A stretch of 60,032 bases of DNA, the filler included, from Rhabdomonas costata (Eukaryota), in the NCBI GenBank assembly GCA_019059605.1. It is 10 parts of 10 records of this genome, joined end to end, with 100 filler letters (N's around TTAATTAATTAA, not from the genome) between each part and the next. Parts side by side here need not be neighbours in the genome. Positions count along the whole stretch, not along the records: positions 1 to 5,822 come from JAHMHO010000039.1; 9 more parts are not named here. The stretch is one strand, 5' to 3'. Both the position numbers and the translations under genes were made by a program. The notes beneath the pieces are model-generated. The model did not search any database, had not been told where the DNA came from, and saw only the letters and a list, made by a program, of their open reading frames with translations. Positions 1 through 37,200 of this stretch are shown in pieces (position 1 is the stretch's first letter; the number at the start of each line of letters is the position of its first letter).

Positions 1-1
1 T

Positions 2-3000
2 TTGTGTGTGGCCCATATGTGGCGCACGGTTCCAAAGGGCTTTTCGATATCTTCCATTCATGAGAGACTTCAGCGATGCTGTGGAGACACATTTCCATAC
101 GCAGTTCAACTCCAGATCGCATGGCATCGGTCTGTCAGGCTCCTGATGCAGTGGATTCAGGAAGGAATCGAAAAGCCCTTTGGAACCGTGCGCCACATAT
201 GGGCCAGACACGAATTCCAGACGGACGTTGGTAACCTCAGTCACGTCCATTTCTTTGTCTGGACAGAGGAGCAAAGCCTCGGAAATCCAGAGCTTGGGGA
301 GAACTTCCGACAGGACGCCGCAGCTGCTTTGGAAAGAATCACTGCCAGTATCACCGAGAGAACGTTCGCTGGCCTTCCGAATGCTGAGGCTTTGAGACAG
401 CTAGCGCTGAAAATCCAGATGCACAACTGTGGGACAAAGTGCACCATGCCAGATGGGACCTGCCGGTTCCATGCTCCTTTCCCATGCCATGATTGGGACA
501 AGTTCGTCCCGATGCATGTCGAGATTCCACAGGCACTTGAGAACATTCTGATTGAGGCCAAGCTTGCCATAAAGAAGGAAGACGGAAGTATTGAGCTCAA
601 CCCCGTGCTGACTGGAGGAAAGCACTGCCCAGCCCGTGGCTTTGCCTGCGAGAGAGTTAGTTCCTTTAGTCCACTTCTCTTTGCTGCAACTCTCTCCCAT
701 GGCAACGCCCAAGTTTGCAACGGGCGTTTTGTTCTGGCATATCTCGTAAAGTACGCAGCCAGCGAGGAGGAAAGGTGTGTCGTGGCCCTAACTCAGAAGA
801 CATCAGCATCATGTGGGGCGACAGTTTCTGATCACAAAAAAAGAAAGCGTGTCGCTGTTCCTTCAAAGGATGAAGCTGCCACAGGGCATCAGATTTCAAT
901 GACCGAAATTTTATTCCACTGCTTGGCTCTTCCAACAGTTTTCTCTACGTTTGAGCCTGTACATGTGAACTCTGGTCCGTTAGAGCACAGATACGTGCCC
1001 TTCAAACCAGGATTCATCCCTGGAAGTGACTGTGGTGGAACTGAGCCTCCAAATGGAATTGTGCAGCCTCCAAATGATGCTTATGATGCTTCTTCAGACT
1101 CATCCCACCAAGAAGCTACTACACTTGATCACACACGTGTCGGTGGCACACAAACGCCAGATGGAACCTGGGTACCGCTGTGGCCTGACCGTGAACCTCA
1201 TTCCGAGCAACAAATCACAGTTCATCGACACAAATTTGATCGCTTTGCTGCTGACAAGGTCACTGTTTACTGCCTCCGGCCTCCTGAACTATGGTCTCTA
1301 ACTTTTGATGAGTACTTCGCCAACGTGTCGATTAAATACCAGCCACGGCCTTCAGCTGCAGATGCCCAGCAAATCAGGCTCGACTGGAAGTCAAATGGTC
1401 TTCTCGACCTCAGAGACTATAGGGTGTGGCTTAGACCCACATTCGGTCTCGACCAGAGGCTCGTTACGGATCTTTTTAAAAGACTGGGTCATCCTGAACT
1501 GGCGTTACCGTTTACAGTGGCTGTAAGGCAGAAGCTCTCTTTGTGTTTCTCTCCCGAAAATTGGGTAACTTCTTTGGTGAACTTTGACCTTTTGGAAGCG
1601 GTCGTTGTCCATCCCAGATACTCTCCAGCTCAACCTGCTGCGTGGTTTGTCCAAAGGGCGATCCGCAATCATGTCTTTGGTGATGAAGAAGAGCTCCTTC
1701 AAAACTACATGCTTCATGTCCGAGAAAATCCTCCCGATGTCCTGACACTGATACACGATTTCGTCCTTGAAGAACTCCGGTTCTGGCCCGTAGGCTACCG
1801 CACAATGTTCAAAATCGTTGAAAGTGTGTGGAATGTATGCTCCGCACGTCCATGCTTTGAGCTTTCCTGGGCGACAAGCGATGAGGAAGCTGGTGATATC
1901 TTCGTTGAAGCCTTCGATCAGCTCATATCTGAAATGGAGATACGCCATTCAGCCGCTTTGTCGTGTCTTCCACCGTGGCAGAAGGCCCAAGGGCAACCTG
2001 ACGCGTCATGGGAGGAGCAGTCCTTGGCTTTCGGGGTTTTAAAGTCTCAGCTTCATCCTTTCTTTGACGGGAACTTCAGCTTGGACAATCAGCCGAACAT
2101 ATCACCGATTTATATTTCCGGAGGCCCAGGCGTAGGGAAAACCTTCTTGATGCTCACTATGGCGCGCGCTTTGCGCCAGGAAACCAGCACCTTCTGGGAG
2201 GTTGTCACCCTGTCTGCGCACAGAGCTGCTGAAATTGGAGGAGTGCACATCCACCTCTTTTTTGGGTTTAAGGTGGGGAATATGAAAAGAAGCACCGCCG
2301 CCAGTTTGGCTGCTTCGTCCATTCAGACACTCAACAGGCATCCTGAGCGGAAGCGGAGGTTGCAAGTTCTGCAAGTGCTCTTCGTCGATGAGTTTGCTCA
2401 GGTGGGCGCCCTGTTGAACGCCGCCATAGACATGCTGTTGCGCTTCATCAGGCAGGTGGACCTGCCATACGGCGGTGTTACCGTGGTGGCCTGTGGAGAC
2501 CACTACCAGATAGAACCAATCGACGAACCTTCCCCACTGCGTTCATGGTTCGTGAAGTTTCACTTTAGAACAATCCCTCTGAAGCAGCTCTTTCGATCAT
2601 CAGGTGACCCCGTTTTGCAGCACCAGATTCGCACGGCACGAACTCCTGTTCTGACTGAAGTACAAGCAACGCAGATATTGGACGCCATCGAGAGCCACTG
2701 TCAGCGAGTTTCCGCCTCCGCAGTGCCTTCCGAAGCTACATGGATACTAACAACGAACCAGGCAGTCGCCGAGGCTCGAGACACGCTGTACGAGAAGAGC
2801 CAGGCTGATAAAACTGAGCTCCTTAGTCATGATTATCTCCTCAAATCTGGGTCTTGGGTCCTCACTCGAGACGCAAAGCATCTCCGCTTCCTTGAAAAAT
2901 TTTCCGCACTATGTGAAGTCGTCAAGGTGGTAAAGGGAGAATTCATGACAGTAACTCAGAACACCACGACCTCTGCAGGGATAATTCCCAATGGTACAAA

Positions 3001-3829
3001 AGGCAAGGTTGTTGCATTTGCTACCCACCCAGCAGAGACGGTCACTCTCTCTTTTGAGTCAGGGCGATCGCATTGCTTTACAAGGACGACCTCGCAGCCA
3101 ATGCACAGTCACTCCAACGTCAGCTTGAAGCGAGCGCAGTTTGCATTGGAGCTTGCGTGTGCCACCACCGTCCATCAAAGCCAAGGTTCGACGCTTCAGA
3201 GCATAGCAACCACCGTGGATGGTCAAAGCAAGAACAGATTCTGGAGCAGGAGCATGCTGTTCACTTTGCTGAGCAGGGTCAGGACACTCGGAAGCATTTA
3301 CCTTATTGGGTACAATGTCGTTGCTCGCCAGCTGCTTAAGTCATTGCTGCTCACAAGGAACCATTGGTACGCCTATGCTGATTACTGGGTGGAAGTGGCC
3401 AGTCTCCTCAGACCAATTTCAACAGTGGTAGTTCGTTCACCAGCGCTACCAAGGGCACCATTTTATGGAGGCAGTTCCGGACTTCATCCTCCTGGAGCAA
3501 ACGAGAACGCGGTCTACTTCATCTGCAGCCGAATGCACGGTATCACTTACGTGGGCTCAACCACAAACGTCGCCAACAGACTGGATCTCCACAATAGCGG
3601 ACTCGGAGCTCTGGCTACGACTTTCACTCGGGACTGGGAGCTCAAAGCCTGCATTTTAGGGTTCCCTGCTGGATCAGGAGGTTACTCAATTGCAAAGGAC
3701 TTCGAGACCACACTGCAGCACCAGCGCACCTCTCCTTACCCACCGCTGTCTACGTGGCTTGCAAAGGGTACAGCGTTGATGGAAGCGTGGCGCATGGACA
3801 AGTGTTTGCCACTGTGGCTATATGTGTAG
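2..3829 (+). CDS. Helitron-like RepHel transposase, 5'-partial: HUH Rep + PIF1 helicase + C-terminal GIY-YIG (SLX1-like) nuclease
   Basis: Uninterrupted 1275-aa ORF. Rep motif 2 is WARHEFQTDVGNLSHVHFFVW (~200-262) and motif 3 is AYLVKY (~738-755). Linker motifs ISMTEIL..LALP and YCLRPPEL are present. PIF1 motifs occur in order: GGPGVGKT (~2119), AAEIGGVHIH, VDEFAQV, GDHYQIEP, LKQLFRS, ACATTVHQSQGSTL, LLSRVR. The C-terminus has AVYFI..ITYVGSTTNVANRLDLHNSG..A..T..RDW..ILGF (~3509-3665). Confidence 0.9.
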   Translation: MCVAHMWRTVPKGFSISSIHERLQRCCGDTFPYAVQLQIAWHRSVRLLMQWIQEGIEKPFGTVRHIWARHEFQTDVGNLSHVHFFVWTEEQSLGNPELGENFRQDAAAALERITASITERTFAGLPNAEALRQLALKIQMHNCGTKCTMPDGTCRFHAPFPCHDWDKFVPMHVEIPQALENILIEAKLAIKKEDGSIELNPVLTGGKHCPARGFACERVSSFSPLLFAATLSHGNAQVCNGRFVLAYLVKYAASEEERCVVALTQKTSASCGATVSDHKKRKRVAVPSKDEAATGHQISMTEILFHCLALPTVFSTFEPVHVNSGPLEHRYVPFKPGFIPGSDCGGTEPPNGIVQPPNDAYDASSDSSHQEATTLDHTRVGGTQTPDGTWVPLWPDREPHSEQQITVHRHKFDRFAADKVTVYCLRPPELWSLTFDEYFANVSIKYQPRPSAADAQQIRLDWKSNGLLDLRDYRVWLRPTFGLDQRLVTDLFKRLGHPELALPFTVAVRQKLSLCFSPENWVTSLVNFDLLEAVVVHPRYSPAQPAAWFVQRAIRNHVFGDEEELLQNYMLHVRENPPDVLTLIHDFVLEELRFWPVGYRTMFKIVESVWNVCSARPCFELSWATSDEEAGDIFVEAFDQLISEMEIRHSAALSCLPPWQKAQGQPDASWEEQSLAFGVLKSQLHPFFDGNFSLDNQPNISPIYISGGPGVGKTFLMLTMARALRQETSTFWEVVTLSAHRAAEIGGVHIHLFFGFKVGNMKRSTAASLAASSIQTLNRHPERKRRLQVLQVLFVDEFAQVGALLNAAIDMLLRFIRQVDLPYGGVTVVACGDHYQIEPIDEPSPLRSWFVKFHFRTIPLKQLFRSSGDPVLQHQIRTARTPVLTEVQATQILDAIESHCQRVSASAVPSEATWILTTNQAVAEARDTLYEKSQADKTELLSHDYLLKSGSWVLTRDAKHLRFLEKFSALCEVVKVVKGEFMTVTQNTTTSAGIIPNGTKGKVVAFATHPAETVTLSFESGRSHCFTRTTSQPMHSHSNVSLKRAQFALELACATTVHQSQGSTLQSIATTVDGQSKNRFWSRSMLFTLLSRVRTLGSIYLIGYNVVARQLLKSLLLTRNHWYAYADYWVEVASLLRPISTVVVRSPALPRAPFYGGSSGLHPPGANENAVYFICSRMHGITYVGSTTNVANRLDLHNSGLGALATTFTRDWELKACILGFPAGSGGYSIAKDFETTLQHQRTSPYPPLSTWLAKGTALMEAWRMDKCLPLWLYV

Positions 3830-3846
3830 ACCCTTTCTACAGTCTT

Positions 3847-3913
3847 GGGGGGATAGGGATTTGGACTTGGAAGCCTTTTGGTGGGGATAGGGATTCGAAA
3901 TTGGAAACCTTTC
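3847..3913 (+). repeat. Two imperfect ~34-bp direct repeats
   Basis: GGGGATAGGGATTtGgacTTGGAAgCCTTT and GGGGATAGGGATTcGaaaTTGGAAaCCTTT, just after the RepHel stop codon. Confidence 0.8.
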
Positions 3914-4140
3914 AGATATTTTCATAAACATGACAACAAATAACTTTCGTTTGCTGAAGCTCGCGCAAACAATTTGCCTTTACTTTATAGGCGTTATTTA
4001 CAACAACTTTGGGAAAGCATTAAAATGTTTTCTGGCAAAGGAAAATATTTCGTTCCTCCCAAACGTGTCAATAGGCTCTCTCTTTTCGTATTTGCAGAAT
4101 TTCAGTTTTTGGAACTTTGTTGTCTTTTTGGAATTCAGGA

Positions 4141-4719
4141 ATGTCTCAAAAAGAAGAAACAGAAAGTGCGCGCTCTCACGAAGTGGAAATCTCTGAGCAA
4201 AACGAAGCTCTTCTTGAGGCTGAAGGAATGGCACATCATTCTGAGGACTCGCAGCACTCACTCCACCCGGATGATCTCATCAGCATCAGCTCCGCAGATC
4301 AAAGCCAGCCAGACGAAGCTCAAGAAGGAGATAATCATGAAAATGACGGGCACTGCACTCCTTGTGGTGGTGAACCTGACCTACAGCCAGAACAGCCTCC
4401 AGCCAACGCTTTGCCTGAGCATCAATCTCCTCCGCATGACGACCTACTCCACGCTGTTCGACCCAGTCCTAGAACCTTCCGCCGAAGGAATCAGAGGATG
4501 CGAGCACAACTTGGCCTTCCACAACGAAAGCGCGGCCGTCCATCCAGGATGAGCCTTGAGGCGGACGATATTGCAATTTACCTCCTCACCCATGATCCAC
4601 AAGAGGTAAAAAAGGATGTTTTTTCAATCACGTGTGCTCAGATTTTCACACCAACTTCTGCTTTCGAGCGTTTGAGGACTCACACCGCAGCACAAGAGTA
4701 CCCTCATTGCCAGGGATGA
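4141..4719 (+). CDS. Hypothetical acidic/disordered protein with an AT-hook-like motif; probably the first exon of a spliced gene
   Basis: Open frame MSQKEETESARSHEVE..., rich in E/D/H/Q/P, containing RKRGRPSR. A possible donor site GAG|GTAAAA lies near 4605. Confidence 0.4.
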   Translation: MSQKEETESARSHEVEISEQNEALLEAEGMAHHSEDSQHSLHPDDLISISSADQSQPDEAQEGDNHENDGHCTPCGGEPDLQPEQPPANALPEHQSPPHDDLLHAVRPSPRTFRRRNQRMRAQLGLPQRKRGRPSRMSLEADDIAIYLLTHDPQEVKKDVFSITCAQIFTPTSAFERLRTHTAAQEYPHCQG

Positions 4720-5569
4720 AGCAGGTCATATTCTTTCGAAAGAAGAAACGCTCATATCCATAAACACTGCGTTTCACACACCCGCATTTCCACATCTTTA
4801 TACCAGTACATGATTTTAACCACAAATAAGGCGCAGTTAGTATCTCTCGCCGTGCCGTCACTGCATCGAAAGTTAAAGTAAAGCTAACCTTGAACCCTGT
4901 TTCTCATCCCGATTATGTTTTATTGGCAGAATGAGTGCGAAAATCAGGCCGTGCACGGCGCAGAATCCAGCTCAAGCTCAACCTCAAGCTCATCATCATC
5001 AAGCTCCAGCATGGCATCAGGCCAAAGCTCATCCCAGGCACTGCAAATTTCCTTTTCAATTGATGCTTGGTGTCAATTCTTCATATTTGTTGCCAACGCA
5101 CCCATCACACCACAATCCATAGATTCTTCAACAACCGCTTCCTCATGAAAGACAAGCTCCAGACGACACCAACTCCGCAGATGAAGACGACGAGGTTCAC
5201 CGCTTTTTTAGGTGGTCTACAACTTCTCACTTGACTAATGCCAAACACTCATTAACTTTGACTTTTTCAGACACCCTCGGAGGAGAGTTGACAACATCGG
5301 CACGCGGATCAACGCGGATCAACGACGTGAACCAAAGCTGAATCGGACACCATGCCCTATATTCTAGTGTTCTGTTTCTCTGCGGAACAAAGATCAACTG
5401 TGGTAATCCTTGACTCTTTTGAGCCACTCGAACGCACCTGGTGTGATGCGGTTTCCATGGACCAGATTCTGTTGCCATTCGTTGACAGGGACATGCTCGG
5501 TGGATCTTTAGTGCTAGGATTGGAAAGGTCCCCGTACAACGTCTCCCAATATGTGTAGTGACACCTGCA

Positions 5570-5822
5570 TGTCCTTTTCGGGTTTGTCCCTTTTCAGTAA
5601 TCTTTTTGCTGCATGTCCTTTTTCAGTGTATGACCTTTTATTCGGTGACCTTTTTCGGGCTGTCCTTTTTTGGGAAGTGTCCTTTTCCGGTAGGTGACCT
5701 TTTTCCCTCTGTCCTTTTTCGATGGACCTGTCCTTTTTCGTTGGGTGACCTTTTTTCCTGTGTGTCCTTTTTCGGGAAAGTGTCCTTTTTCGGTACGTGA
5801 CCTTTTTGCTGCGTGTCCTTTT
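5570..5822 (+). repeat. Array of ~16 TGWCCTTTTT motifs with variable short spacers
   Basis: Units such as TGTCCTTTTTcgggaaag, TGACCTTTTTcgggc and TGTCCTTTTTcgatggacc. Period about 13-19 nt; truncated by the scaffold end. Confidence 0.9.
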
Positions 5823-5922
5823 NNNNNNNNNNNNNNNNNNNNNNNNNNNNNNNNNNNNNNNNNNNNTTAATTAATTAANNNNNNNNNNNNNNNNNNNNNN
5901 NNNNNNNNNNNNNNNNNNNNNN
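5823..5922. other. Artificial scaffold linker N-TTAATTAATTAA-N (also 11690-11789, 17710-17809, 23623-23722, 29484-29583, 35340-35439, 41176-41275, 48179-48278, 53976-54075)
   Basis: The same 100-bp N-flanked six-frame-stop spacer recurs about every 5.8-7 kb. Confidence 0.97.
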
Positions 5923-10680: not shown

Positions 10681-13600
10681 GCGCCAAGTTCAGATCTTTA
10701 GGAGCTAAATCACCTATAATATCACCTCCCTACATGCTTCTGACGTATTTCGGATTGCGGGAAATCTAATCAAGCCCAACGCAAGAAAATGAATTTGCGG
10801 AGCAGAAGATCATACGAGTCAAAGTTGCTTTTTACAGTAAGAACAGTAGTGACATCGGCAGTGTGTGGTATAATCATTCTTCACTGGAAACTTCCACGTC
10901 AGTGACCACCAGCTCAGGAAAAATGGTTGGTCGGAAATTGAAAATAATGTGGTAGTTTTGGTACTTCCAGTCAATATCCCAGAGTTAAATAATCTCCAAG
11001 CTCAAAAGCGTGGTACTCCGGTTTCTTTCTCTTCACCGCTATTCACCACTACGGAGTTTTTTCTTTGGTGGAATCGCCAATACCATGGCTTCCCGGGTTC
11101 TTACTGGGCCTTGTTGCATGATTGCATGCGCTCAAATGGAAGGCAAGGCGGCACTTCTGACGGAGGTGGACGCTGCTGGATACAAGTTCAACCTCGCACT
11201 TGCCGGACGCACTGCCGATACTTCATTGCCTCCGCGTTATTGGAGACGACATGATCGGGTAGGAGGTCTCTAGTGTCGTTGTCGTTTTGTAGTACCTATG
11301 GGATATTGACACCAAGTTCATGTGGTGCCCGGAACTCCAGCATTTGCCCACTGTGGTGCTCCACCAGCTTGCATGGTCGGATTTACCACGAGATCGTCAC
11401 CAACTATGATTTTAATGGCTTGTTGGTGGACGCAACTGTCCTCCAAAGCTAGTTGGATGAAACCTACAACTGGGCCTCTTTTTCTGCTCATGCGGACTCC
11501 GTTATCACTACATGGTGGTCGAATTCTTTGTGTATCTACTCCGTTGTGGCCTTCGCAGAGGCGCAAACGCTGTTACACTACCAGGCGTCGTAGACCACAA
11601 TCCTTTGCACGCGCTATGATGAAAACATCTTCCTTTTTGGCAGGACATTGTGGCCGTGAATGTGATTCATTATGTTGATATACCACAACNNNNNNNNNNN
11701 NNNNNNNNNNNNNNNNNNNNNNNNNNNNNNNNNTTAATTAATTAANNNNNNNNNNNNNNNNNNNNNNNNNNNNNNNNNNNNNNNNNNNNTTAGGAAAAAT
11801 CTCCCGACTGCACCAATGCGGTTTGAGGAGGGTTACAGTAAAATTCATTACACTGAGCGTTGTTTCAGATCCCGATTCCGGGCGGCGAAAAACGCTTCGG
11901 CGAAAAGAGCCTGTTATTAAAGCTGGAAAATTCCGCTGCAAACAGACAAAACTCAATCGTATCATCATTAGCACGAAGCTTTCACGCTCTGCTACAGTCA
12001 GATGCACTACAAGACAAGCTCACTGGACCGCCTCATGCGCAAGCGATTTTTCTATTGCAGGAAGTGAAAACAGTGCGTGCTTGTGTGGAGTAAAAAAAGC
12101 AACCGAACCCGGAACGAAGCCACTCAAGAAGCAGCCACCTTCAGAAAAGCATCCAAATTTGTACCCCAATGCGGTCATTGCGGTGCTACAGTGGGACGGT
12201 ACCGGACGGTACACCGGAATCTGTACAGTATCTTTGCACTTTTTCCAAAACCTTTACCTAAACACGTCTGCAAAGTCACTTGGATGACTCGTAAGCTGTT
12301 ACACCGAATCGTCGCTGGCAAACCACAAGTACCTTCCGGTGACATGACGCAATACCGCAAACAGCTTTTCAACAGCACACTTGGTAGCATTCAGAATGAG
12401 ATCGCAACCATTCTCGCTCATTTTATTGCAAACTCCACAGGTTAACTCTCGAGCCGAAATTGCGCAGTATTTTGGATCATCATCAGGCTTCACATCGTTT
12501 CAAACTGATCCAGACCGCTATGCACATCCAAATAACCTACAAAATTACGCTTTAAAGGTGTGCTAATAGCAAAAAACCAGGAGTGGAACACGCGCTAATC
12601 TACACCAAATACAGCTTTTTGGACATCAACGAGCGCAAATATGAGCTGTATTACGAATAACCATATACATCCACACATGGTATGAGCCATGTGCCACATA
12701 CTCATCTAAGTGTGCATCGCTGTTATCTAGCCCAACCGCGCAGCTGATGAGTTGCCCACAAAGATATCAGGAGCCATGCACAGGAGCTCACAACTCCTTC
12801 CATGGTTTCAGCCCGCATTTAGCGCACCAAAAATTCAACCAGATGCCACGTCACATCATAGATGATTCACAGAACGCCACGATAAGCCAGAAGTACCACG
12901 TGGTCCGATAAAATGTCAAAGATACCACGACAACACACGCACATTACTCTTCTCTGGCATCCCTCCAGTTTCCGCGCCACATTTCCAGCACATTCTCCTT
13001 TGCGTTTGTCACCCCACTGTAGAATCCAGTTTTCTTGCTCGTTTGTATGTATCGTCTTTTTGTATTCTGTTAGCCATATATCATTGGTTTTATAACACAA
13101 TATGGCAACTTTATGTCCAAAACGTTTAGGCTTACATTCCATCTTCCTCCATACGTGTCATTTTAATATGATGTTTTGATCCTCTCTGCTGCACATTGCT
13201 TATATTAACTTTGTTTTCTGCCCGCAATACCGTAGCAATGTGTGGCCAGCAATGAGCAAATACTGTGGTCACTTAGAACGTAGTCTTTACGCCTTCCATG
13301 GAGGACGGTCATGGNNNNNNNNNNNNNNNNNNNNNNNNNNNNNNNNNNNNNNNNNNNNNNNNNNNNNNNNNNNNNNNNNNNNNNNNNNNNNNNNNNNNNN
13401 NNNNNNNNNNNNNNNNNNNNNNNNNNNNNNNNNNNNNNNNNNNNNNNNNNNNNNNNNNNNNNNNNNNNNNNNNNNNNNNNNNNNNNNNNNNNNNNNNNNN
13501 NNNNNNNNNNNNNNNNNNNNNNNNNNNNNNNNNNNNNNNNNNNNNNNNNNNNNNNNNNNNNNNNNNNNNNNNNNNNNNNNNNNNNNNNNNNNNNNNNNNN

Positions 13601-15119
13601 NNNNNNNNNNNNNNNNNNNNNNNNNNNNNNNNNNNNNNNNNNNNNNNNNNNNNNNNNNNNNNNNNNNNNNNNNNNNNNNNNNNNNNNNNNNNNNNNNNNN
13701 NNNNNNNNNNNNNNNNNNNNNNNNNNNNNNNNNNNNNNNNNNNNNNNNNNNNNNNNNNNNNNNNNNNNNNNNNNNNNNNNNNNNNNNNNNNNNNNNNNNN
13801 NNNNNNNNNACGGACCTGGTTCCGGTCATATGGGTGTCCTCTGACGCGGAGAAGTGTGCAGGTGTATATTTGTATCACCCTTCTCAAACTTTTCATGCGC
13901 TTTCTTTTGACCGGTTTTGTTACACCTGTTTTATCCATCGGAAGTAATGTGTGTGGAGTCAATTCTGTGTCACTCAATGACCTGTCTTTTTTGAATCCAC
14001 GGTGGACGGTGGCGGGTGGTGACGGAGCAAAGTTCACAATGCTTGTAAAAAGATTGTTTGCTGCGTCCGCTTGACATGTGTACACCAGAATAAAGTGAAA
14101 CCAGGTCGACCACTGGAAGTTGCCAAAACGTACTTTGCCCATCTTCATGGATAGTGATACCCTCATTAAAACCCACCACTTAGCTATCTAGTCTTGGCCT
14201 TTCAAAAAGGCATATGAAGCGGTTCATCCTCCACATGCCCCCCCATTCTCTCTCCATCCCATTCTTATTTTTTGTGGATCAAACCCGTTTGAAACACCGT
14301 GGGGGGTTGGTTGTTGGAGCCGATCATTGCACTCGCCTGACTGCAGTTTTCAGTAATTGGTAGCACGTTACTGTGGGCAATTGCGGTGGTACGCGGTCTT
14401 TTGGGACGAGCGTCATTGAAACTTCGTACTCCGAGTAGAAGCCCACCGAAAGCCAAATGGACAAGACCTTTTCCTTATTCACCGCGTCCGCCGCCGCAAT
14501 TATTACTACGACGGTATTAAAGAATTGCCGCCACCGGCATATTTTGCATTGTTTCTGCTTTTTCCTCTGGCAGACCTGCTTTTGGTCTTTTCTAGCTGCC
14601 AGTGTCTTGGCGCTAGACTTGCGGATTCCACATCTTTTAGACAGCAACATGCGCCACGTTTTTTGCACTTCCCTGTGCCCCCGTCTGCTTCCATCGTACC
14701 ACGTGTCACCCAATTTGTTTCCACCAATTCTTCCAATCCACACTCATGTTTCCTTCGCTTGAACACGCGCCTCTTTTGGAGAGGTTTTTTTCTTAGAATG
14801 CGTGCGCTTTGTCAACATCCTTGGTTTTCGTATCCGATGACATTTTTTGGGTATTCTTCCGGTGTAACGGCTCAGCGTACGTAGGAAGAACGTTTTGTAG
14901 TAGAAGGTAAAGGAGAAAGCTGGGTAATTCAGACAAGAGTGTCGTAGTAGCTTGGACGCTTTGTTAGTCACATAATTTTGTAAGGAGGTCAGAGGAGTAT
15001 TAAAGAGCAGAGATCAGTTGAGGATTTTTATGTGTTTAAGAAATTCGCAAATAGGTGCGAGAGCAGTAGAAAAGCGAGTTATCAGCAGGCGGCTGTGCAA
15101 AGCAAAAGCCAGTAGCATT

Positions 15120-15790: not shown

Positions 15791-17811
15791 GTGTAACGGA
15801 TCAGAACACGTAGGAGAGTCTTCGAATGGATGAAAATATAAAGAACACTTTGATGTTCGTAGTCTTCCGAATTTTCAGAGTCACTTTCGACGGAGTAGAG
15901 ATAGTGGTCGATATACGAGATTTGAGAGGAATGATTGACTAGATAAATATTGGAAGATTGTAAGATTGGAACGCTTAAATGAGAAGAGAGGAGAGCGTTG
16001 TTTCTGCAAGAGCAGAGATAAATTCTGTTGGTGAGATGAGACTTCAGAAAAGCTCAAGAGTTGATGAAGAAGCGGTGCATTTGGATAAGCCAGTGGAGGA
16101 AGCCACGAAAGAACTTTGAGGACAAATGGGAAGCAAGAGCAATTACATCTGACCGAGGCAAGTCGGGAAAAAGCAAAACAATATGACACCCAAACAGGCA
16201 GAAAAGCGAAGCTAGAGAGTAAAAGTGGATAGAATGCCGAACCGGAGAGAGAGAATGGCAAGACCCTCGAGCGATCAAGTGTGAGAAATGATTGGGAAGA
16301 AAAATGGAATAGACGCAATAAGCATGAGTGCACGGCAAGCAAAAGGCACAGGAGAAATGAGGGCAGCCAGCGAGCAGAGAGGAGAGGATATGAAACGCAC
16401 ACGAGATATAAGAAAAGAGGCGCTCAGATAGACGGGAAATGCTTGAGGCAAGACAATGTGTAAAAAGAAGGCAAAGATAAATGGGATAAAGCCTTGCGAA
16501 GATAAATGAAATCCTCGTTGCTCATGTGCACGGGTTTGTTGATTTTTCCCAGCTAAGATTGATGAGATGAAGATCCTGCAAATTGAGTGAATTTGACAAC
16601 GAGCGGATGGAGGATTAAAAGAGTAACAAGTCGGTGTTCTTTAATGCCTATTTCAAGAGATGAGGCGAAAGATACCGATAAAGGGTCTGGAATCCGACGT
16701 CTGATTATTTGGGTGTACTTTGGTTTTCGTGGTGTTTTTGGGTTGTGATTAAAAAGCTGTTTACATATTTTACAGGTTGCAGCTAAAAAGCTCAGCGGAG
16801 CGAGGCTAAAGCGAGGTAGAGGCGATTCATGGCTAAAAAGGTTGAGAGTTGAACCTTCTCACTTCCCCTCTGCTGTGCTTTGGTGCCGCTCCCTTCTTGC
16901 TTTTCTTGTTTTTGTGTGTGAAAGGCGTAAGAGGACGGCTTGGAAGAGGCAATACCTCCAGGACCACACCTCCAAGCGTAACCATCGAAAGCAAAGGCCC
17001 TTGAAGCTAGCAGCCAGCAGAAGTCACAGCAAGAGAAGTCCAGCGAAACCACCAGCTTTGATCAAGACCCCGGACACGCCTCAGCTAAAGATCCCTCAAT
17101 CTAGAGCAAGAAATTGCCGAGCCGAAGAGCCCAACGCCACACACACACACCCAAGCTAGGAACCAAAGATATAGCCCACGCGGCGGCGACAGACCGCAGT
17201 GCACAAATGGAGGAAGCCAGACCGTGATCGGTGTAAACTCAGCTTTTTCTGGCTGTTTCCACCAGTGTAAACAGCGGAAGCGCCCACTTAGTGACAGCTA
17301 AGTCTGGATACAGGCTGTCAGAAGAGGAGCCCAGAGCCACGACCAACAGCACGAGGTAGGTGGCACGTAAGAGGCTCGGAGGATAGACGTCGTGTGACAG
17401 GTGGTAGTTGAATCTTGATAAATATCCAGAGCGCAGTGTTCAATAGAACCACCTTGACATGTGGCAGCAGATGGATGTCTTCTTTCAAGAGGAGTAAGAT
17501 CGTACAGCACCAGAGTAGCCCGGCGCGCAGAGCCCCAATGGAAAGAGTCAACGCCAGCTAGTATAAATAAATCCAGAGGCGTCGCTACAGAGGTCGCATG
17601 GTAGAAGAGCAAGCGAGCTATAACAGGTGACGAATACATGCTAAATGTATCCACCTCCGCAGGTGATACAAAGCCTTCATAAAAGCGTATTGATCGCACC
17701 CCCACCCCCNNNNNNNNNNNNNNNNNNNNNNNNNNNNNNNNNNNNNNNNNNNNTTAATTAATTAANNNNNNNNNNNNNNNNNNNNNNNNNNNNNNNNNNN
17801 NNNNNNNNNGG

Positions 17812-18124
17812 TTGTGTGAGAGTAAGTAATGAATACGTACCGAACTTTCCCCTGAGTCGCCCTTCAAGATAATCCAATCCATCGAGGAAACTGTTGGAAC
17901 TGGACAACAAAGAGCGGGGGGGGGGTCACAACTGGCCTCTTCTATTGTGTGATTTAGCCTCCGTTTTGGCCCTTGGCCCTTGGCCCTTGGCTCTTTGCTT
18001 TTTAGACCCACCCCTCCCCCGCTCTTTGTTGTCCAGTTCCAACAGTTTCCTCGATGGATTGGATTATCTTGAAGGGCGACTCAGGGGAAAGTTCGGTGCG
18101 TATTCATTACTTACTCTCACACAA
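17812..18124. repeat. Long inverted repeat / foldback (MITE-like) element
   Basis: 17812-17920 is the reverse complement of 18016-18124 (109-bp arms, one visible mismatch). The ~95-bp spacer contains TTGGCCC repeats. Confidence 0.9.
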
Positions 18125-23622: not shown

Positions 23623-25500
23623 NNNNNNNNNNNNNNNNNNNNNNNNNNNNNNNNNNNNNNNNNNNNTTAATTAATTAANNNNNNNNNNNNNNNNNNNNNN
23701 NNNNNNNNNNNNNNNNNNNNNNGTGGTGTTTTCCCCAAAATGGCGAGTGGCCACGGGGTCCTTTTTTAAAAGCTCATTTTGGGTCGTTGGGCCCTTTGGC
23801 ATTGCCTGTTCAAAAGAATTGCATAGCAACGAGCCAGGTGGTCTCTTCCGCTCGCACTGACAAAAAACTCATATTTGGACCGTAGTCAAGATACTGCAAC
23901 AATGAAGGGGAGGTGGAAGGGGAGCATACAGCAAAACGCACACAGATCTCATAGACCCCCGTTAATAAAAGCGCAGTGCAGTCCAGGCTGAGTCCAAGTT
24001 GCGCTGGAGGTCGTAGACACCGGACCGTCATGAAAACTTTAACTTCGGACTGAAACGCTTCGAGTCTGAAGATGCGCCGCTCAGTTGCCCTCAATCTCAA
24101 ACGGTGGTGCTTTGGCAGCCGCATTTCTATTTCCTGTTCACCCAAAACAAGGCAGGGCAACAACTTTCAACGGCCTTACCAGTGATGCCCAACCACACCA
24201 GCTACACACTTCACCCCACCGGAGGAAAACGCCCTGACATTCATCCGTGTTCCGTGTTTGTGAACAAGTGCGTTATAAAGCGATGGAGGGGAAGGGGGCA
24301 GGGCCGAACCATCCGCGCTGACGGAGTTGGGGCGGAGAGGCTTCCCAGGGGTAAGACCGGGGAGCCTCTCCACTTCGCCCAGCAGGGTGGGCGCCCCGTT
24401 GGAGCCCCGCGGCCGCACGGTGCCCCCGAGCTGCAGAGGCAGCGGGGCAGTGACGCACTGTCCCCGCGGGGTTTTCACCACAAGGTCAGCCTGGTGCTGC
24501 AACCCCCACCCCCCAACCACACACTGAGAGACCCGCGGACAGGTAGGCTGGGAATGTCTTCGTAAGGGCTCGCGATACCAAACGCCATACATTTCTTTTC
24601 CATTTTTAGAGAAAAATATAAGAATTCAATTGTTCCCACAGAATCTTAGAAACGCTTCAAAGTGCACCTCCAAGTTCATTCTTTGTGCCGTTGTGGTGAA
24701 GAAGGACAGTTGTGCAGCAGTTGTATGTTGAAAAAAAGGCACTACCGTACACATGAATCGGTACAAATGCTGATTCAGCATCAAGTTTAATCCATGCCCA
24801 AAGCCCGAACCCGTCACTTTCTACTTATGAAAAATCGCACGGAGCTTTCTTGACATTTGCCTGTTTTGGCGAGGCAAAACCAAGAAGATTTTTGCAGGGA
24901 ACGAACCCAAACAGGGCTGCTATTTTTCGGTGTCGGACTCCAGGTTTGAGTTTAATTGCAAATATTTTGGACCGCCTATTTTTAAAATGACATGGGAACA
25001 GAAATGGGGCAGCGCAGACCTTGGCGCCACTCGCGCTCACCACACTGGTTCCGTTCCAGACCCGGCTGATGCCACCCTTGGACCAAATGTGGTGGTGGGC
25101 TCCCAGCAGCTCCGGTTGCGACAGAAGGGCCTGGGGGTGGTGTGAGATGTACCAGGGAAGGGGCGTACAGAGGGAACCAAACCACAACACGACGGGATGC
25201 ACAATGCAACAAAAACAGCGAGCGACTTCATGAGAAACAACGGGTGAGAAAATTCCTGCAACTTTGGAGACGGGAGAGGAAGTGCACCATGAAGAGGAGC
25301 GTGTTTTGTGTTTAAAGCTGTCGCTGTGCAGTCACCACACAGCTGGGTGTGAAGGGTGAACAACGGTACGGAATAGGCGTTAGGCTGAAGTCCACCCACC
25401 ACACAAAATTATTACAGGTTCTCCAAACCTAAGACAATGCCGCCGGTCCAGAATTTAACATTCTCAAAATGAACACTGTGCAGCGGGGAAATGTTTCATT

Positions 25501-25570: not shown

Positions 25571-28500
25571 CGCACCCCATCTGAAGGTCCCACGGCGAGC
25601 ACCACCTTTCCTGAAGAAACAGCAACCAATTCAGAACTAATTTGTGCCCGTGTTCCAAAAGGGCACAAATTGGCATGTGGCGTCTGTGCAAATAAAAGGG
25701 AGCGGAAACAAATTATTGAGCAAAAACGCCAAAACAAGGCGTGTAGTCATGACAAAAAAGAGCGGTGAGTCCGTTAACCCCCCAGGCCTTTGGGGAATTG
25801 GCTTGGCTTCACCCTCTTTCCAGAAGGGTCCTGAATGGCGCGAAAAAAATGGTTGGTGAAGGAAAAGGCTGGGTGGGGCACCGTCTTTGTTCAGAAAAGA
25901 GTCAGCCTGCAGGGTGAGATTCCCCAGGCTGTGGAACTGTAGAAGGCTACCCATGCACAGAATAGCCTTCTGCAGTGCCTCGTGGCTGCCTGAAAACATC
26001 GCAGCAAAAACGAAAGGACGTCGTATAGAAATGACAGTCGTGCACGTGCTTTCCCCCCTGAATATAACCAAAGAAAACCGAAAAGTCGCCAGCCACTGCA
26101 GCTTTGAGCAAGGGGTAAGGGTAGACGTGTGACATTCTGGCATTGCATTGCACACCGCTGACATAAACGGCCCGAGCAGCCAAGTTGAAGAGAACGAAAT
26201 GAGGTGAGCTGATCCCGAGGTCCTCCGCAGACACACCACCGAACTCCTCTGTGAGAGAAGAAATCCAGGAGCACCACTAGATCATGGGTGAAGAGTGGGG
26301 TTTGCTCGAGAGGCAAAAAAAGGAAGCCACAAGATGGGAAAAAAATTGAGAGTTGCATGCCAACAACACGAGGATCAGGAAGAGCATAGTCATGAACATA
26401 GTAAACGGCGAATTGGTTGGAGAATTCAACAGGGCTGACCGCAGCTGAAGGGCTCACCATGTACCTGTGAAAAAACAACTTTGATCGATCTCCTCTGCAT
26501 TGCAAGTGCGATTACGTACCTAACACACACGTATCAACCCCCCGAAGATCGAAAATCGAAAATCGAATGGTTCGAAAATATCGGCGAGGGCAAGGGCAAG
26601 AGCAAGGGCAACGAATGTATGAAAAAAAATACAGCAAAATGCATAAAGGGGAGAACAAAATAATTAAAAGTGGATACTTCAGAAACAGCGCCGCAGAAGC
26701 GTCGTAGGTCACGACAGAAAACTTTACATCCTCTCCGCCATGAGAGCCAAAAAACCCGTCATGAAGAAACAGAGCTGAATCTTTGGCTGATGCAGGCGCT
26801 CCCAAACGATGCAGCACCTGAAAGCATGCGAGCAGATGACGTGGCTCAGCAAGGAGAAAGACATAGCAACACTGAAGAAAGACAAGAGCAAATACCTCCT
26901 TGCTGAGCGATTCATTGGATATGTTGCTCGCGTTGGAAAAAGCCGATGCAGACGCGTCAATCTCTGTGAGCTTCGATCCCCAGCTGTCTCCAGAGCTGCG
27001 AAGCCCCTCTTCCGCAACAAATACCTGCATTGGAGAAAAATATCACTGATTGAAACAACGCTCACCGCGCGGGAAGAAATTTAGACTTGGGAAACAAAAA
27101 GACCAACTGCTTTCCGAGTTTCAAACAATTTTGACGCTTGTCTAAAATTTCCGAAGACAAACGGATAAAAATTCTGGAGCCAAAAGGTCTGCAGAACACC
27201 GTAGTTTTTTTAGTTTTCGTTAAAAACCGAAAACTTTTATGCATACAGTCGTTGGTTCAGTACCTCGAGCAGCAATTGTTGCATCTGATCATCTGTGGGG
27301 TGGATTTCAGCCTCTTGCTTCCACTCATCATATCTTCCACGTTTTTGCCAATAGTATGCTTAAAATATAATGCCCATGTNNNNNNNNNNNNNNNNNNNNN
27401 NNNNNNNNNNNNNNNNNNNNNNNNNNNNNNNNNNNNNNNNNNNNNNNNNNNNNNNNNNNNNNNNNNNNNNNNNNNNNNNNNNNNNNNNNNNNNNNNNNNN
27501 NNNNNNNNNNNNNNNNNNNNNNNNNNNNNNNNNNNNNNNNNNNNNNNNNNNNNNNNNNNNNNNNNNNNNNNNNNNNNNNNNNNNNNNNNNNNNNNNNNNN
27601 NNNNNNNNNNNNNNNNNNNNNNNNNNNNNNNNNNNNNNNNNNNNNNNNNNNNNNNNNNNNNNNNNNNNNNNNNNNNNNNNNNNNNNNNNNNNNNNNNNNN
27701 NNNNNNNNNNNNNNNNNNNNNNNNNNNNNNNNNNNNNNNNNNNNNNNNNNNNNNNNNNNNNNNNNNNNNNNNNNNNNNNNNNNNNNNNNNNNNNNNNNNN
27801 NNNNNNNNNNNNNNNNNNNNNNNNNNNNNNNNNNNNNNNNNNNNNNNNNNNNNNNNNNNNNNNNNNNNNNNNNNNNNNNNNNNNNNNNNNNNNNNNNNNN
27901 NNNNNNNNNNNNNNNNNNNNNNNNNNNNNNNNNNNNNNNNNNNNNNNNNNNNNNNNNNNNNNNNNNNNNNNNNNNNNNNNNNNNNNNNNNNNNNNNNNNN
28001 NNNNNNNNNNNNNNNNNNNNNNNNNNNNNNNNNNNNNNNNNNNNNNNNNNNNNNNNNNNNNNNNNNNNNNNNNNNNNNNNNNNNNNNNNNNNNNNNNNNN
28101 NNNNNNNNNNNNNNNNNNNNNNNNNNNNNNNNNNNNNNNNNNNNNNNNNNNNNNNNNNNNNNNNNNNNNNNNNNNNNNNNNNNNNNNNNNNNNNNNNNNN
28201 NNNNNNNNNNNTTTGACTAATGGACAGTTCCAGGTCCCAAAAGAGCTTTCCTCTGAAGAGCTGCTGGAAACTGCATTGGCGGCCGAGTGATTATTGTGCG
28301 GACGAGCCCTCTGGACCCCCACTTCTCTTGAAGCAGGGGTTCAGGATTGTCGTGAATTTTTCAAATTAAAGCAAGAAACACCCCAAAATTAAGAGAATAG
28401 TGCGCAACCAATTCCAATGAAGTTTTTACAGTGACTTTCAAACGGTGGCCTTTTTCGGCCTTGGATACGCTGTTTTTACCGTCAGACCGTGAGTTCTTAC

Positions 28501-30203
28501 TTTACGGTGTAACCTGCTTTCGATCACAAAACAATGAAAAAAAAAATTGGTTAAATTACAGTGAATAATTGATTTAATCAACCGCACAGACTTTCAACCG
28601 TTGGAGGAACTTTACAAGGAGTGTGTGTGCGCGCGCACGAAAAAAGTCATCATTCGTTTTGGCACACTTTTGTGCTCACGGAAAAGCTACCGCACCGAAG
28701 CAAAATGAAATAATTGCAGACACACCGGCGTGCGGCCAGGCGGAAGATGCCAGTCCACACTTTCTGTCATAAAAGAGCAGGCCGGAAAGCTAAACATGCA
28801 AGCCCCCCACCCTTTTGCGTGTCCCGGAAAACAGCTTGACTTTTTTCAATTGAGGCTTCCTTTGCAGGGAGGGTCATCCAATTCAAGGAGGCATCTGTCT
28901 CCGTTTATAAATTACACATGTCAGAGGGAAAGAAAGGCACGGTCACGAAGCTGGCATTTCTTGGACCAGTATCTTGGGGGACGGCTTACGAGCAGATGTA
29001 AAGCGAATGAAGCAGAGAAAACCCAAGGAAAGAGAAGAACATGGCTTCGGAAACGCAGTAATTCATTCGTCGATCTGGATAAAGGAGCGCAGCCGAATAA
29101 AGGAGAGGGGCCTAAATCCCACCTGCTGAAACAGGAACCTAGACGGGGGAATGACCCCCGTCTACCCGCCTTCCCGTTGCGCCAGGCCATTGCTCGGCCT
29201 GCGGAACCGCTCACCTTCATGGGAGCGCTGTGGCGTTAGTGGCTACAGAGAGATACCCAAGCTGACGAGGTACAGTGGTGGTTGCCATAAGGCAGCGTGT
29301 TGATTTTGTAACCGCTTCGAACGCGCGCGCTTTGGGGTCACAATGCTCAGGGTTTTCTCCATCTCCCTGATTCGTAAATGGCGCGGGCTACTGGGGAGAA
29401 AACTGCGGTGATTTCCTCCTTGTTCTGCGCTGAGCTCACTTTTGCCCTGGCCTGGGCCTATGCTGTCCCTGCCCCAACCACCCNNNNNNNNNNNNNNNNN
29501 NNNNNNNNNNNNNNNNNNNNNNNNNNNTTAATTAATTAANNNNNNNNNNNNNNNNNNNNNNNNNNNNNNNNNNNNNNNNNNNNGTGGTTGTTTTGAGCAT
29601 GCCTGACACAGCAATGCTCAAAACAAACGACCGATCATTGAACTCACTCGAGATACAGGCAGCTGAATGCGACATTTGCTGAGCACGACCCACTCAGGTG
29701 CTACGTACTTTTAGACAGGACTCCCATGGCATACACAAGCATTTGTGCGTCTGAATTTGTCTTTGTGTAGGGTTAGGTTAAGGTTGGACATTTGGTGCCT
29801 TTGCGCGTGCTATTAAGTCTGGATTTTGGGAGGGAGGTAGCTGCTGCATAACAGCTACGCCTTGGCTGGGGTACAATAAAATAGAGTATGCTGAACAGTT
29901 GGTTGATGTTCCACAGACGCAGGGTGTCCCATTAAAAATGTTAACTTTTTGAATAAATTCTTCACTGTGGCTACCCGGGTCCAGGTTAATGGTGCAGGTA
30001 CCTCATGCACACGCTGCCATTTTTTTTCATTACGAGCATAATAAATAAATACCTGCCTGTCAAGGCTTACACGAAGCCTCGTTGCACGGCAGTGCCTCCG
30101 CCCTGGCCATTCCTCGACCTAACGCCAGTCACCGGCCCAAAAACGGCGCCCATTCGCATCATATCCCCAGTGTACAAGGTCCTGGGGCCCAAAGACGCTT
30201 AGC

Positions 30204-34202: not shown

Positions 34203-37200
34203 ACGGGGTCGCTAGACAGCGAACCTTATCATTTTCCCAGACTCCCGTGAGCTGAACGCATGCAGGCGTGGACACGAAAGACGCCGAACAGTCTTTTGTG
34301 GGCGAGGTCGTTACTGGGAAAGGAAGAAGCTGTGTGCTGTCCTGAAAACAAGAGAGACAACAGGAAAGCACAATCACATCACAGTACACTTCAGAAAAAT
34401 GCCCTGTGAACCCGCAGCGCATGACACCCTTCTCCTGATGTACACCATCTGGGGGGGGGGGAGATTTTTATCAGAGTAGCAAGAGCCGTTTCCACAGGTG
34501 CACGCTTACTCAGCTGAGCGGATGTGAGCTGAGAACACTCAAACCCCTATTACCTTTGGATAAGAAAACGAAGCATCTGAGCAGAAAAACAAGATAGCGA
34601 CATGTTTATGCTCATTGGTCACCATAACCTTCGGGTAAGAGGTTATCACTTTCAATCGACAGACGCATCAGCCACTGCTAGCTGAGACGAGGTTTCCCAA
34701 CTCACGCGATGGTGGTTTGTTGTTTGACTTAGGTGTTTCGGGGCAAGCCGGAAAACCGATTATTCGCTCAAGCTGCTGTCGTACTTCTTTTCGTATGCGC
34801 GGAAAAACTTGTTGAGCACTGCAGCTGTGCGTGCCTAAATGAAGGGCCAAATTCCTTTTTGAATTCAGTAGTGGGGGTTGGGGTGTCCCAATTGTAGTGG
34901 TGGCGATAGGGTGTGAATAATTTTCCTACAAATGGAACAATTTTCCACGCGAAAACTCCATACTCAAAAAGCTGGTTCCGAAAAACGACGGAAGACCAAG
35001 GATAGTTGCCTTAGGGTGGTGTGCATTGCCCCACGTGCTAACCTCTATTAAAATTTCGAGGGGGGGGATATGCGAATGAACATCTACTCAATTCAAGTCC
35101 CAGTTGAGCCCAGGTCAACTCAGGAAAGGTGTTTCTTAAAACTATTTCTGCATTTAACTCAGCAAAAAGAGTACTGCGGGGGTGTGAATCAGTGCCGGGG
35201 TGAAGAAAGGGCCGATGAAAGGGGTGATGTGCTGACGTGCGGCAACGCGAGCGGGGTTTAGAGGTCACAGTGTGCAGACCTTCATCATCCGAAGACGGAT
35301 GATGGCTTGTATCTGAGGCTATATTTGTTTCGAAACAATNNNNNNNNNNNNNNNNNNNNNNNNNNNNNNNNNNNNNNNNNNNNTTAATTAATTAANNNNN
35401 NNNNNNNNNNNNNNNNNNNNNNNNNNNNNNNNNNNNNNNACGCTCAGAAGCAAACGTTTGGGACAACAAGGGTGGCTGAAAGACGGGTAGAAAACCAAAA
35501 ACTGTAAGAGCACGCAAGGAGAAATGGGGACTGTGATGTCTTATTGCGGAAGCATTGGCAGTGCTGGGGGCCGGGAGGGAGGGGGAGGGGGTGCTGAAGT
35601 ATGGTAGGAAAAGAAATCGAGGCAGCTGATGAGACAAAGGAAGAAGCTTCACCAGTTTTGAATGCGTTGACGGACGGCCTACACTGCCTGAACTGCATCA
35701 AATTTTGCTGTGTGAGCCGCCCGTTCTCCCAAGCATAAATGCCAGAGCGGCACTGAAACACGAACCTGCACCAGGGTTTGATTCTGGGCATGCAGGACGG
35801 CAGACAGGCCGGAGATCTGCTGCCGCTGCTTCTCCAGAGTTTGCTGGTCCACGGAGCCTGGGGACTGCTGGCCTGCCCCTGCTTTGGCGGCCCTCGCAGT
35901 ATGGCCCATAGAGCGACTGGAGGGCGTCCGATTCTGAGGAGCCATGCAGACAAAATCAAACAGCGATTCTGTTCTATGCATATATATAATGTCAGTTTTC
36001 GTTTCCGTCCACCCTACGTCGGCCATAGGCCATAGGAACAATGTTCACGAGGTTACACTGCAGCAAAGGTGCCGTAATACACATGCACACAAACCGCAAC
36101 GATTGGTTTCGAAGGTGACTCACAAGTTTTTTCCATCTTTTGTCCCAAACGTTCTGCCAAGGTCGCTTGTCGGCATAAAACAGATCACAACGTCGTTTCA
36201 GGCGAGGAAGACCGAAGACTTGAGAGAGGGAGAGAATCCAGCCCGAGTTTGACCGGTTTCGCGCTCTTCGCTGCGAGAGAGATTCCCTTGAACGCAACCG
36301 CGTGTGGTGGACTTTCGTTCAAAACGGTGCAGTGGGTCCCGAATACGACTTCAACAGCACCTTCAGTTGATTTAACAGAAGAGAAGAAGCATTCAGGGGA
36401 AGGATGCATACCACTACACCGGAAACGGTGTGATCAAACTTCGAAGGATCTGAAAAGCAAATGAAAAAGGGAACAAAAAACTGCGGAGATTGCGATTGTG
36501 TTGATGAATTGCCGCGATGCTGGGCTATTGTCGCCAACACGAAACACGGAACAATCCAGCGCCCAGATCTGATGCTCATCTATCCCTATCCACTTCACTG
36601 TCCACTCCACTGTCTCCCTGCAACCTGAACCTGCTCACCCACAATGGTCGCTTTCATTGGTACCTTCCAACACACTTCACCTTTGTTGACACCTTCATCT
36701 TTTGTGATGGTATAGTCGTTTCAGTTGTTTGAGGGGTTGTTGTGTGGAACTTGCGGCATTAGGCTCACGCGATTGATGAAAGAAGCAGAATTTTGCGAGA
36801 AGGTAACCCATCGGGGCAGGGCAGTTGGAGCCGGGGGGGGGCTCTTTCCTCATGAATTTGGTATGCAGAGTCCCACACGAACAAATCGAACATAAAGTGA
36901 CCTACAACTGGAGGAACCGGAAGGGTAACCCCAGTGGCCGCCACGAAGGCCTCATCAGCTACCCCAGTGAATGCGTGCTGCTGGGCCTCAGAGAGAAGCC
37001 GCAGTTGTTCCTGAGCATGGAACCCAACCACCCAGATCCGAACTGTCACAACTCAATAATAGTTAAGAATCGAAACCAAGGCATGCCCCAACCACAGCTG
37101 CGCGAAGCCCTTGTGCAGAGGACACTCAGTGCCTCAAAGAAAGAAGGCAACTGAACAACACTCAATATCCAATGTCCGGCAAATACCTCTCCTCCAAGTC

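Follow-up and report, generated by a model that had tools for sequence, protein, structure and literature searches.

A probable divergent Helitron-like transposase with a C-terminal GIY-YIG nuclease domain of the SLX1 lineage in Rhabdomonas costata

Helitron-like transposons encode a transposase that combines a Rep domain with a PIF1-type helicase (RepHel), in which the Rep domain nicks and joins single DNA strands and the helicase unwinds in the 5' to 3' direction (PMC11417382, PMC10288648). In the Helentrons (HLE2), this Rep-PIF1 transposase is followed by an extra nuclease domain (PMC11417382). Here, we describe a likewise extended open reading frame (ORF), named P0001, in a stretch of 60,032 bases from Rhabdomonas costata (assembly GCA_019059605.1), which as a whole is called the window in the following and which consists of ten contigs of 5.7-6.9 kb each joined by artificial spacers. 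Since these are unrelated contigs that were concatenated, features on separate pieces are not genomic neighbours, and the true context of P0001 is nucleotides (nt) 1-5822 only, i.e., the first contig. We consider it likely that P0001 encodes a divergent Helitron-like rolling-circle transposase, a RepHel protein in which an SLX1-type GIY-YIG nuclease is a fixed component at the C-terminus. Compared to the Helentrons, the nuclease fold is GIY-YIG here but Exo_endo_phos (AP endonuclease) there, and the Rep region of P0001 is very divergent; Exo_endo_phos was absent among the 15 Pfam families matching P0001 at E≤1.

Three further systems are close to the arrangement found here. A GIY-YIG domain besides RepHel, as in P0001, is mentioned for the HLE2 family HelenSM92 from Sphagnum magellanicum (HELIANO, NAR 2024, PMC11417382), where it is reported in one sentence as captured, and our comparison is confined to that description. 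The fusion in P0001 is in frame and conserved over deep divergence. Penelope-like retroelements, eukaryotic mobile elements as well, also carry a C-terminal GIY-YIG nuclease on their main enzyme; however, this core enzyme is a reverse transcriptase and the mechanism of transposition differs (PMC6431247). In sequence and fold, SLX1 and its plant relative At-HIGLE are closest to the nuclease domain of P0001. In contrast to SLX1, P0001 contains no RING/PHD finger, the domain forms the tail of a transposase, and no SLX4 partner is implied.

The original prediction had left open whether such a fusion was already reported. Among the papers listed in searches of the full-text literature, HelenSM92 was the sole relevant report found that brings together a Helitron-like element and GIY-YIG (PMC11417382), and the other co-mentions checked concern Penelope-like elements or mariner-associated genes. 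Judged by their titles, the listed papers that mention Helitrons together with Slx1 are not relevant, and those on fused Pif1 and GIY-YIG all deal with polinton-like viruses; no paper was found that mentions Helitrons along with a URI domain. GIY-YIG is not named among the recurrent accessory domains in the passages of the HELIANO report that deal with them (PMC11417382). The combination of GIY-YIG and Helitron is not wholly unreported, and P0001 belongs to a known kind of transposon, in a form that has received little description. As far as our searches reach, which covered open full text and left subscription journals, Repbase and Dfam outside, an in-frame C-terminal SLX1-type nuclease that is conserved throughout a deeply diverged RepHel lineage has been neither described nor analysed.

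Domain architecture of the reading frame

P0001 ends with a stop codon at 3827-3829, and at a GC content of ~50% a frame that stays open for 1275 codons is well beyond chance. Its 5' truncation is most likely caused by the contig end, and the first ~18 codons are unreliable because of a fold-back at the contig start (Table 1). The helicase, the nuclease and the very probable Rep domain share one frame and their catalytic motifs are intact. We are quite confident of the identity of the single parts, i.e., a Rep domain of the HUH/Y2 type, a PIF1 helicase and an SLX1-type nuclease.

Table 1. Positions of the features described in the text; nucleotides are counted along the whole window and residues along the respective protein
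Feature	Position (nt)	Strand	Residues	Basis or remark
ORF P0001, 1275 codons, 5'-truncated	2..3829	+		Rep (partial), PIF1 helicase and GIY-YIG nuclease in a single frame
Rep (HUH) domain, C-terminal part	47..613	+		47% identity to residues 860-1038 of P0002
YLVKY, candidate two-tyrosine (Y2) Rep motif	740..754	+	247-251	Position observed
PIF1-like superfamily 1B (SF1B) helicase	2105..3325	+	702-1108	Pfam PIF1, solved PIF1 chains, motifs
Walker A, GGPGVGKT			707	
Walker B, FVDEF			794	
Helicase motif GDHYQ			832	
Helicase motif VHQSQG			1057	
Helicase-nuclease linker	3326..3508	+	1109-1169	Colinear with relatives
SLX1-lineage GIY-YIG nuclease domain	3509..3826	+	1170-1275	Pfam, SLX1 matches, AlphaFold model
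P0002, diverged Helitron-like ORF, 1042 residues	49847..52975	-	792-929 (Helitron_like_N)	On another contig
Fold-back at contig start	1..214			nt 1-55 match nt 160-214 in inverted orientation (93%)
Artificial spacers	5823-5922, 11690-11789, 17710-17809, 23623-23722, 29484-29583, 35340-35439, 41176-41275, 48179-48278, 53976-54075			

The assignment of the Rep region draws on a second, diverged Helitron-like ORF of the window, P0002. This protein matches Pfam Helitron_like_N with E 9.2e-10 and 39.5 bits (cut-off 28.9), and residues 16-204 of P0001 are 47% identical to its end (E 1e-48). The HUH motif HVHFF of P0001 (residues 81-85, nt 242-256) lies inside the stretch common to both proteins. About 165 residues after it stands YLVKY, which we take to be the Helitron YxxKY two-tyrosine motif. 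As a lead only, a search of the ESM Atlas with residues 19-340 revealed that 20 of the 30 nearest clusters carry Helitron_like_N, with a best score of 0.95. The N-terminal half of the Rep domain is cut off in P0001. The order of Rep followed by PIF1, which defines Helitron-like transposases, is very probably present in P0001, with a Rep domain that is divergent and half missing.

The helicase is recognized by Pfam PIF1 over residues 702-841 with E 6.2e-13, and human PIF1 chains of solved structures match up to residue 1108 with E 1.3e-16. Together with the 47% identity of the Rep region to the Helitron_like_N-matching P0002, this supports the Helitron-like Rep and PIF1 assignment made in the original prediction. 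The nuclease follows the helicase in the same ORF, as had also been claimed, and both are connected by a linker with conserved stretches common to relatives, W(H/Y)A..D.W and PF.Y. Neither the GC content at third codon positions (GC3) nor CpG shows a break over the helicase-nuclease junction. Within the helicase region, the antisense strand at 2872-3147 (-) resembles residues 957-1048 of P0001 (36% over 95 residues, E 0.002, tblastn), a likeness that is probably due to chance or to a weak internal palindrome.

The nuclease domain is matched by Pfam GIY-YIG (PF01541) over residues 1170-1238 with E 8.7e-8 when the whole of P0001 is searched, and the last 142 residues alone reach E 4.2e-9 and 37 bits, which exceeds the curated cut-off of 22.6 and agrees with the profile check put forward in the original prediction. 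The peptide quoted there is present in the frame of ORF 2-3829 (+), at residues 1170-1235 (nt 3509-3706). The motifs of the domain start with AVYFIC at residue 1170 (nt 3509), TYVGST at residue 1182, NRLDLHNSG at residue 1192, RDWELK at residue 1210 and KDFETT at residue 1232. All key residues are in place, namely Y1172, Y1183, R1193, H1197, N1198 and E1235, among which the GIY and YIG tyrosines, the Arg and the metal-binding Glu presumably exert the catalytic roles. In an alignment of 22 sequences, no variation occurs at Y1172, Y1183, H1197, T1206, W1212, F1221 and E1235, and the conservation of R1193 is at least 90%. The motifs, described in the original prediction as apparently intact, hold at the Tyr, Arg and Glu positions.

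Sequence and predicted fold both point to the SLX1 lineage. A single-sequence phmmer search against solved structures placed SLX1 chains best (7wme 3.7e-6, 6seh 1e-4, 4xlg 0.008), followed by bacterial UPF0213 at 0.3-0.4, and no UvrC, I-TevI or restriction-enzyme GIY-YIG chain was returned at E≤10. R1193, the Arg of NRL, aligns with residue 36 of chain 4xlg_A, which we assume to be the catalytic Arg of Candida glabrata Slx1. The profile A2 matched SLX1 structures at 1.1e-28; this result was set aside and is not relied on, because A2 includes two SLX1-like sequences (P0025 and P0029). An AlphaFold model of the domain calculated with 21 database relatives reached a predicted local distance difference test score (pLDDT) of 89.6 and a predicted template modelling score (pTM) of 0.79, and it replaced a model from the single sequence with a pLDDT of 39.3. 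The order of its elements, E-E-H-E-H-H-E, fits the beta-beta-alpha-beta-alpha core of GIY-YIG nucleases. The Foldseek search with the model, proposed in the original prediction, returned as its top 11 matches exclusively Slx1 or At-HIGLE with E values down to 3.2e-5, while UvrC and I-TevI were at 0.45-1. VIA-align, used as an independent alignment of the model against all structure representatives, placed At-HIGLE (Z 11.3, root-mean-square deviation (rmsd) 2.4 A, 102 residues aligned), Slx1 of 6seh (Z 10.0, rmsd 2.4 A, 99 residues aligned) and Slx1 of 7cq2 (Z 9.2, rmsd 2.6 A, 96 residues aligned) ahead of 3j6b_d, a yeast mitoribosome chain (Z 6.3, rmsd 3.5 A, 98 residues), I-TevI (Z 4.7, rmsd 3.0 A, 75 residues) and UvrC (Z 4.1, rmsd 5.0 A, 85 residues).

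Only 40 residues separate E1235 from the end of P0001, and the final strand, PLWLYV, recurs in relatives that end there too. No RING/PHD zinc finger follows the nuclease domain in P0001, judged from the position of the stop codon and from Pfam, which finds no zinc-finger family. An identity as SLX1 orthologue was considered and rejected, as the RING finger is missing and the protein ends ~40 residues past the catalytic Glu. From the term SLX1-type GIY-YIG used in the original prediction, the affiliation to the SLX1 lineage stands, as indicated by phmmer, Foldseek and VIA-align, whereas an SLX1 orthologue is not present; given the missing RING finger, the domain is properly called an SLX1-lineage nuclease domain and not an SLX1 protein. 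Both its sequence and its predicted fold identify the C-terminal domain as an intact GIY-YIG nuclease from this lineage.

The helicase-nuclease fusion in relatives

A full HMMER scan with the last 142 residues of P0001 against 1.84 billion representatives yielded 27 matches at E≤1e-3, of which seven reached E≤1e-10. Pfam was run on ten of these and revealed PIF1 followed by GIY-YIG in P0014 (770 residues), P0017 (856 residues) and P0020 (605 residues), GIY-YIG only in five, no family in one and an unrelated protein, the bacterial-type surface protein P0013, in the last. Among the 27, P0016 is of the T5orf172/SegE type, and P0025 and P0029 look like ordinary SLX1 proteins. By BLASTP against the helicase segment of P0001, a colinear helicase match just upstream of the nuclease match is found in 10 of the 27, and the other 17 are mostly fragments whose start lies no more than ~30 residues from the nuclease domain. 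P0014 aligns with P0001 in one colinear alignment over residues 542-1266 (34% identity, E 2e-122), and P0017 is colinear over residues 660-1235 (26% identity). Furthermore, two clusters among the nearest neighbours in the ESM Atlas combine PIF1 and GIY-YIG, one with a representative of 1696 residues and 50 members, the other with a representative of 786 residues and 66 members, in which diatoms are the commonest named taxon. These alignments show that the fusion of helicase and nuclease has been kept in relatives with no more than 26-34% identity to P0001, and they argue for an old fusion that did not arise by accident.

This conservation bears directly on two events which the original prediction itself had named as refuting it, a chimeric join in the assembly near nt 3400-3500 and a unique recent capture in the P0001 copy. 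Assembly artefacts do occur in the window, where two contigs start with a fold-back, gaps are numerous and contigs are concatenated. However, the fused relatives originate from other public assemblies and show, independently, the colinear order of helicase, linker and nuclease; the composition is unbroken over the junction and the C-terminus is common to relatives. For P0001 itself we regard both events as extremely improbable, and since the fusion is conserved in distant relatives, as seen in P0014, P0017 and the 10 of 27 colinear representatives, a one-off capture and a chimeric join are excluded as readings of the fusion itself.

A tree of the nuclease domain was calculated from 25 of the 27 matches and P0001, leaving out P0013 and P0016 as unrelated or homing-type. 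Several small clades in it are well supported and include fragments alongside helicase-linked sequences, while its deep branches are not resolved (72/86), and it does not separate one from several origins of the fusion.

Instead of participating in strand transfer, the nuclease could be a selfish or accessory add-on gained by gene capture, which might introduce double-strand breaks favouring a homing-like copying or might counter host factors. Such a view finds a precedent in the GIY-YIG of Sphagnum HelenSM92, which HELIANO calls captured, and in the statement of the same report that accessory domains are often fragmented and probably not essential (PMC11417382). Moreover, GIY-YIG domains are common in homing endonucleases, to which P0016 with its T5orf172/SegE type relates. 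The domain of P0001, however, is in frame, its position and linker are conserved, its catalytic residues are kept in relatives at 26-46% identity, and it belongs to the SLX1 and not to the homing-endonuclease lineage (Z 4.7 for I-TevI compared to 9-11 for Slx1/HIGLE). We therefore judge an add-on role outside strand transfer to be quite unlikely.

Rep, superfamily 1 (SF1) helicase and nuclease could alternatively constitute a virus-like or episomal module for extrachromosomal rolling-circle replication. The contig measures only 5822 nt and is unplaced, and PIF1-type helicases as well as GIY-YIG nucleases apparently come up in papers on polinton-like viruses. On the other hand, the closest clusters in the Atlas consist of eukaryotic Helitron-type proteins, viral contigs scanned with the alignment A3 yielded no relative, no capsid or other viral gene was found on the contig, and the order of Rep and PIF1 is a hallmark of Helitrons (PMC11417382). 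This explanation is highly improbable. In scans of other contig collections, metagenomes contained seven distant helicase-only loci (L001-L007), none of which extends to the nuclease part, and in prokaryote genomes relatives were not found.

Several results weigh against the interpretation of P0001 as a Helitron-like transposase with a fixed nuclease. Pfam Helitron_like_N is not called in P0001 itself, even at E≤10, and an hhalign comparison of its Rep region with three database RepHel proteins is weak (E 0.034, probability 1.5%), although this alignment, made from thin profiles, places the HUH region sensibly. The structure of Helraiser (7lcc) matches the helicase of P0001 only, and weakly (9.3e-5). 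Rep is undetected in any of the fused relatives, all of which are fragments or without a Pfam Rep call. A profile search with A1 for longer proteins returned five PIF1/RepHel-type proteins, none of the five with GIY-YIG, and neither the C-terminal region nor the combined helicase and nuclease region gave a match in word-indexed searches of proteins. Finally, P0010 lacks the Arg and P0007 the Gly of YIG, as expected of decayed copies, which means that some copies are inactive. Weighing these points against the evidence presented above, we hold to a divergent Helitron-like transposase with a GIY-YIG domain as the likely identity of P0001. Regarding annotation, it follows from the missing call that the Pfam Helitron Rep model overlooks the Rep region of this protein.

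A possible role of the second nuclease in transposition

The titles of the PDB entries 6sei and 7cq4 name branched and 5'-flap DNA as substrates of Slx1. A tethered domain of this kind might act in transposition as follows. Rep would nick one strand and carry it, and the PIF1 helicase would peel off the carried strand. The structure-specific nuclease, attached to the same polypeptide, would subsequently cut a strand beyond the reach of the HUH site. One candidate is the non-transferred strand where single-strand integration leaves a branch or loop; another lies in a flap or fork at the donor. After this cut, the insertion could be fixed on both strands by repair synthesis. The first of these steps is modelled on Helraiser, for which Rep reportedly nicks one strand and carries it. 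The nuclease would thereby occupy the place held by the AP endonuclease in Helentrons, for which the same role is usually guessed. In exactly this form the mechanism is tentative, and we place its chances somewhat below even. A function in nicking the target or in resolving strand-transfer intermediates, as suggested in the original prediction, is likewise tentative.

The transposition of Helitrons is known from one reconstructed element, in which the HUH domain handles single strands only. The fusion described here bears on how the second strand is handled in Helitrons and on the reason why Helentrons contain an extra endonuclease; should a lineage have independently fixed a different structure-specific nuclease in the corresponding position, this would speak for a real benefit of a second nuclease activity to rolling-circle transposons. 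The idea is directly testable, as a domain of only ~110 residues is concerned, its model is good, and the positions for Arg and Glu mutants are clear.

A more far-reaching proposal would assign P0001 to a separate, deep-branching Helitron-like clade, neither HLE1 nor Helentron, which would be distributed throughout protists, e.g., diatoms, and in which the SLX1-type nuclease would be ancestral and obligatory. We regard this as unlikely. If it were true, these elements would be rolling-circle transposons with two nucleases, the HUH enzyme acting on the transferred strand and the GIY-YIG enzyme on either the complementary strand or branched intermediates, and the donor and target sites would be handled unlike in the Helraiser model.

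Second Helitron-like frame, surroundings and minor features

The window contains one full helicase-nuclease copy. P0002 stops before the Y motif, and neither a helicase nor a GIY-YIG domain follows it on its contig. Its N-terminal ~790 residues are without Pfam match and contain cysteine pairs. DUF6570, which lies upstream of Rep and serves as an HLE2 marker according to HELIANO, gave no match at E≤10 in P0002 or in residues 16-543 of P0001, of which the latter lacks its N-terminus, and the family is very divergent.

P0001 could also be a domesticated host gene, i.e., an immobile Rep-helicase-nuclease derived from a Helitron that serves for example repair, replication restart or genome defence. 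A long intact frame with all motifs conserved, present as a single full helicase-nuclease copy within the window, would be expected of such a gene, and the ends of an element were not seen; downstream of the stop codon, a structured 3' hairpin was not found (z -0.34). However, P0002, which is 47% identical in the Rep region and lies on another contig, looks broken, and the many deeply diverged public clusters, some without catalytic residues, are more in keeping with a family of transposons than with an orthologue present in one copy. Moreover, the HUH and Y motifs of Rep are kept in P0001. Domestication is, in our judgement, very unlikely, and a transposase of a Helitron-like family remains the preferred assignment.

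The artificial spacers are nine identical copies of the makeup 44 N, TTAATTAATTAA and 44 N. A second fold-back lies at the start of another contig (17812-17926 versus 18010-18124, 115 nt, 98%); in both fold-backs, whose arms measure 55 nt and 115 nt, the loop is about 80-100 nt, and they are probably an artefact of assembly or amplification and not biology. Internal runs of N (241-832 bases) are present in four contigs at 13315-13809, 27380-28211, 43775-44015 and 57170-57454 and represent scaffolding gaps. No Rfam family is found in the window.

On the first contig, the ORFs downstream of the transposase are without significant Pfam match. An AT-rich stretch lies 3' of the transposase stop codon, and 16 nt past this codon a 34-nt unit is present in two tandem copies (85% match, 3845-3912). 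An open frame of 214 codons at 4075-4719 (+), again without significant Pfam match, encodes an acidic, Ser/Glu/Asp-rich product with an AT-hook-like RKRGRPS, and this frame could belong to the element or represent an exon from a neighbouring gene. A T-rich tandem array with periods of 17 nt and 51 nt and units like TGTCCTTTTTCGG occupies 5570-5822 and reaches the contig end.

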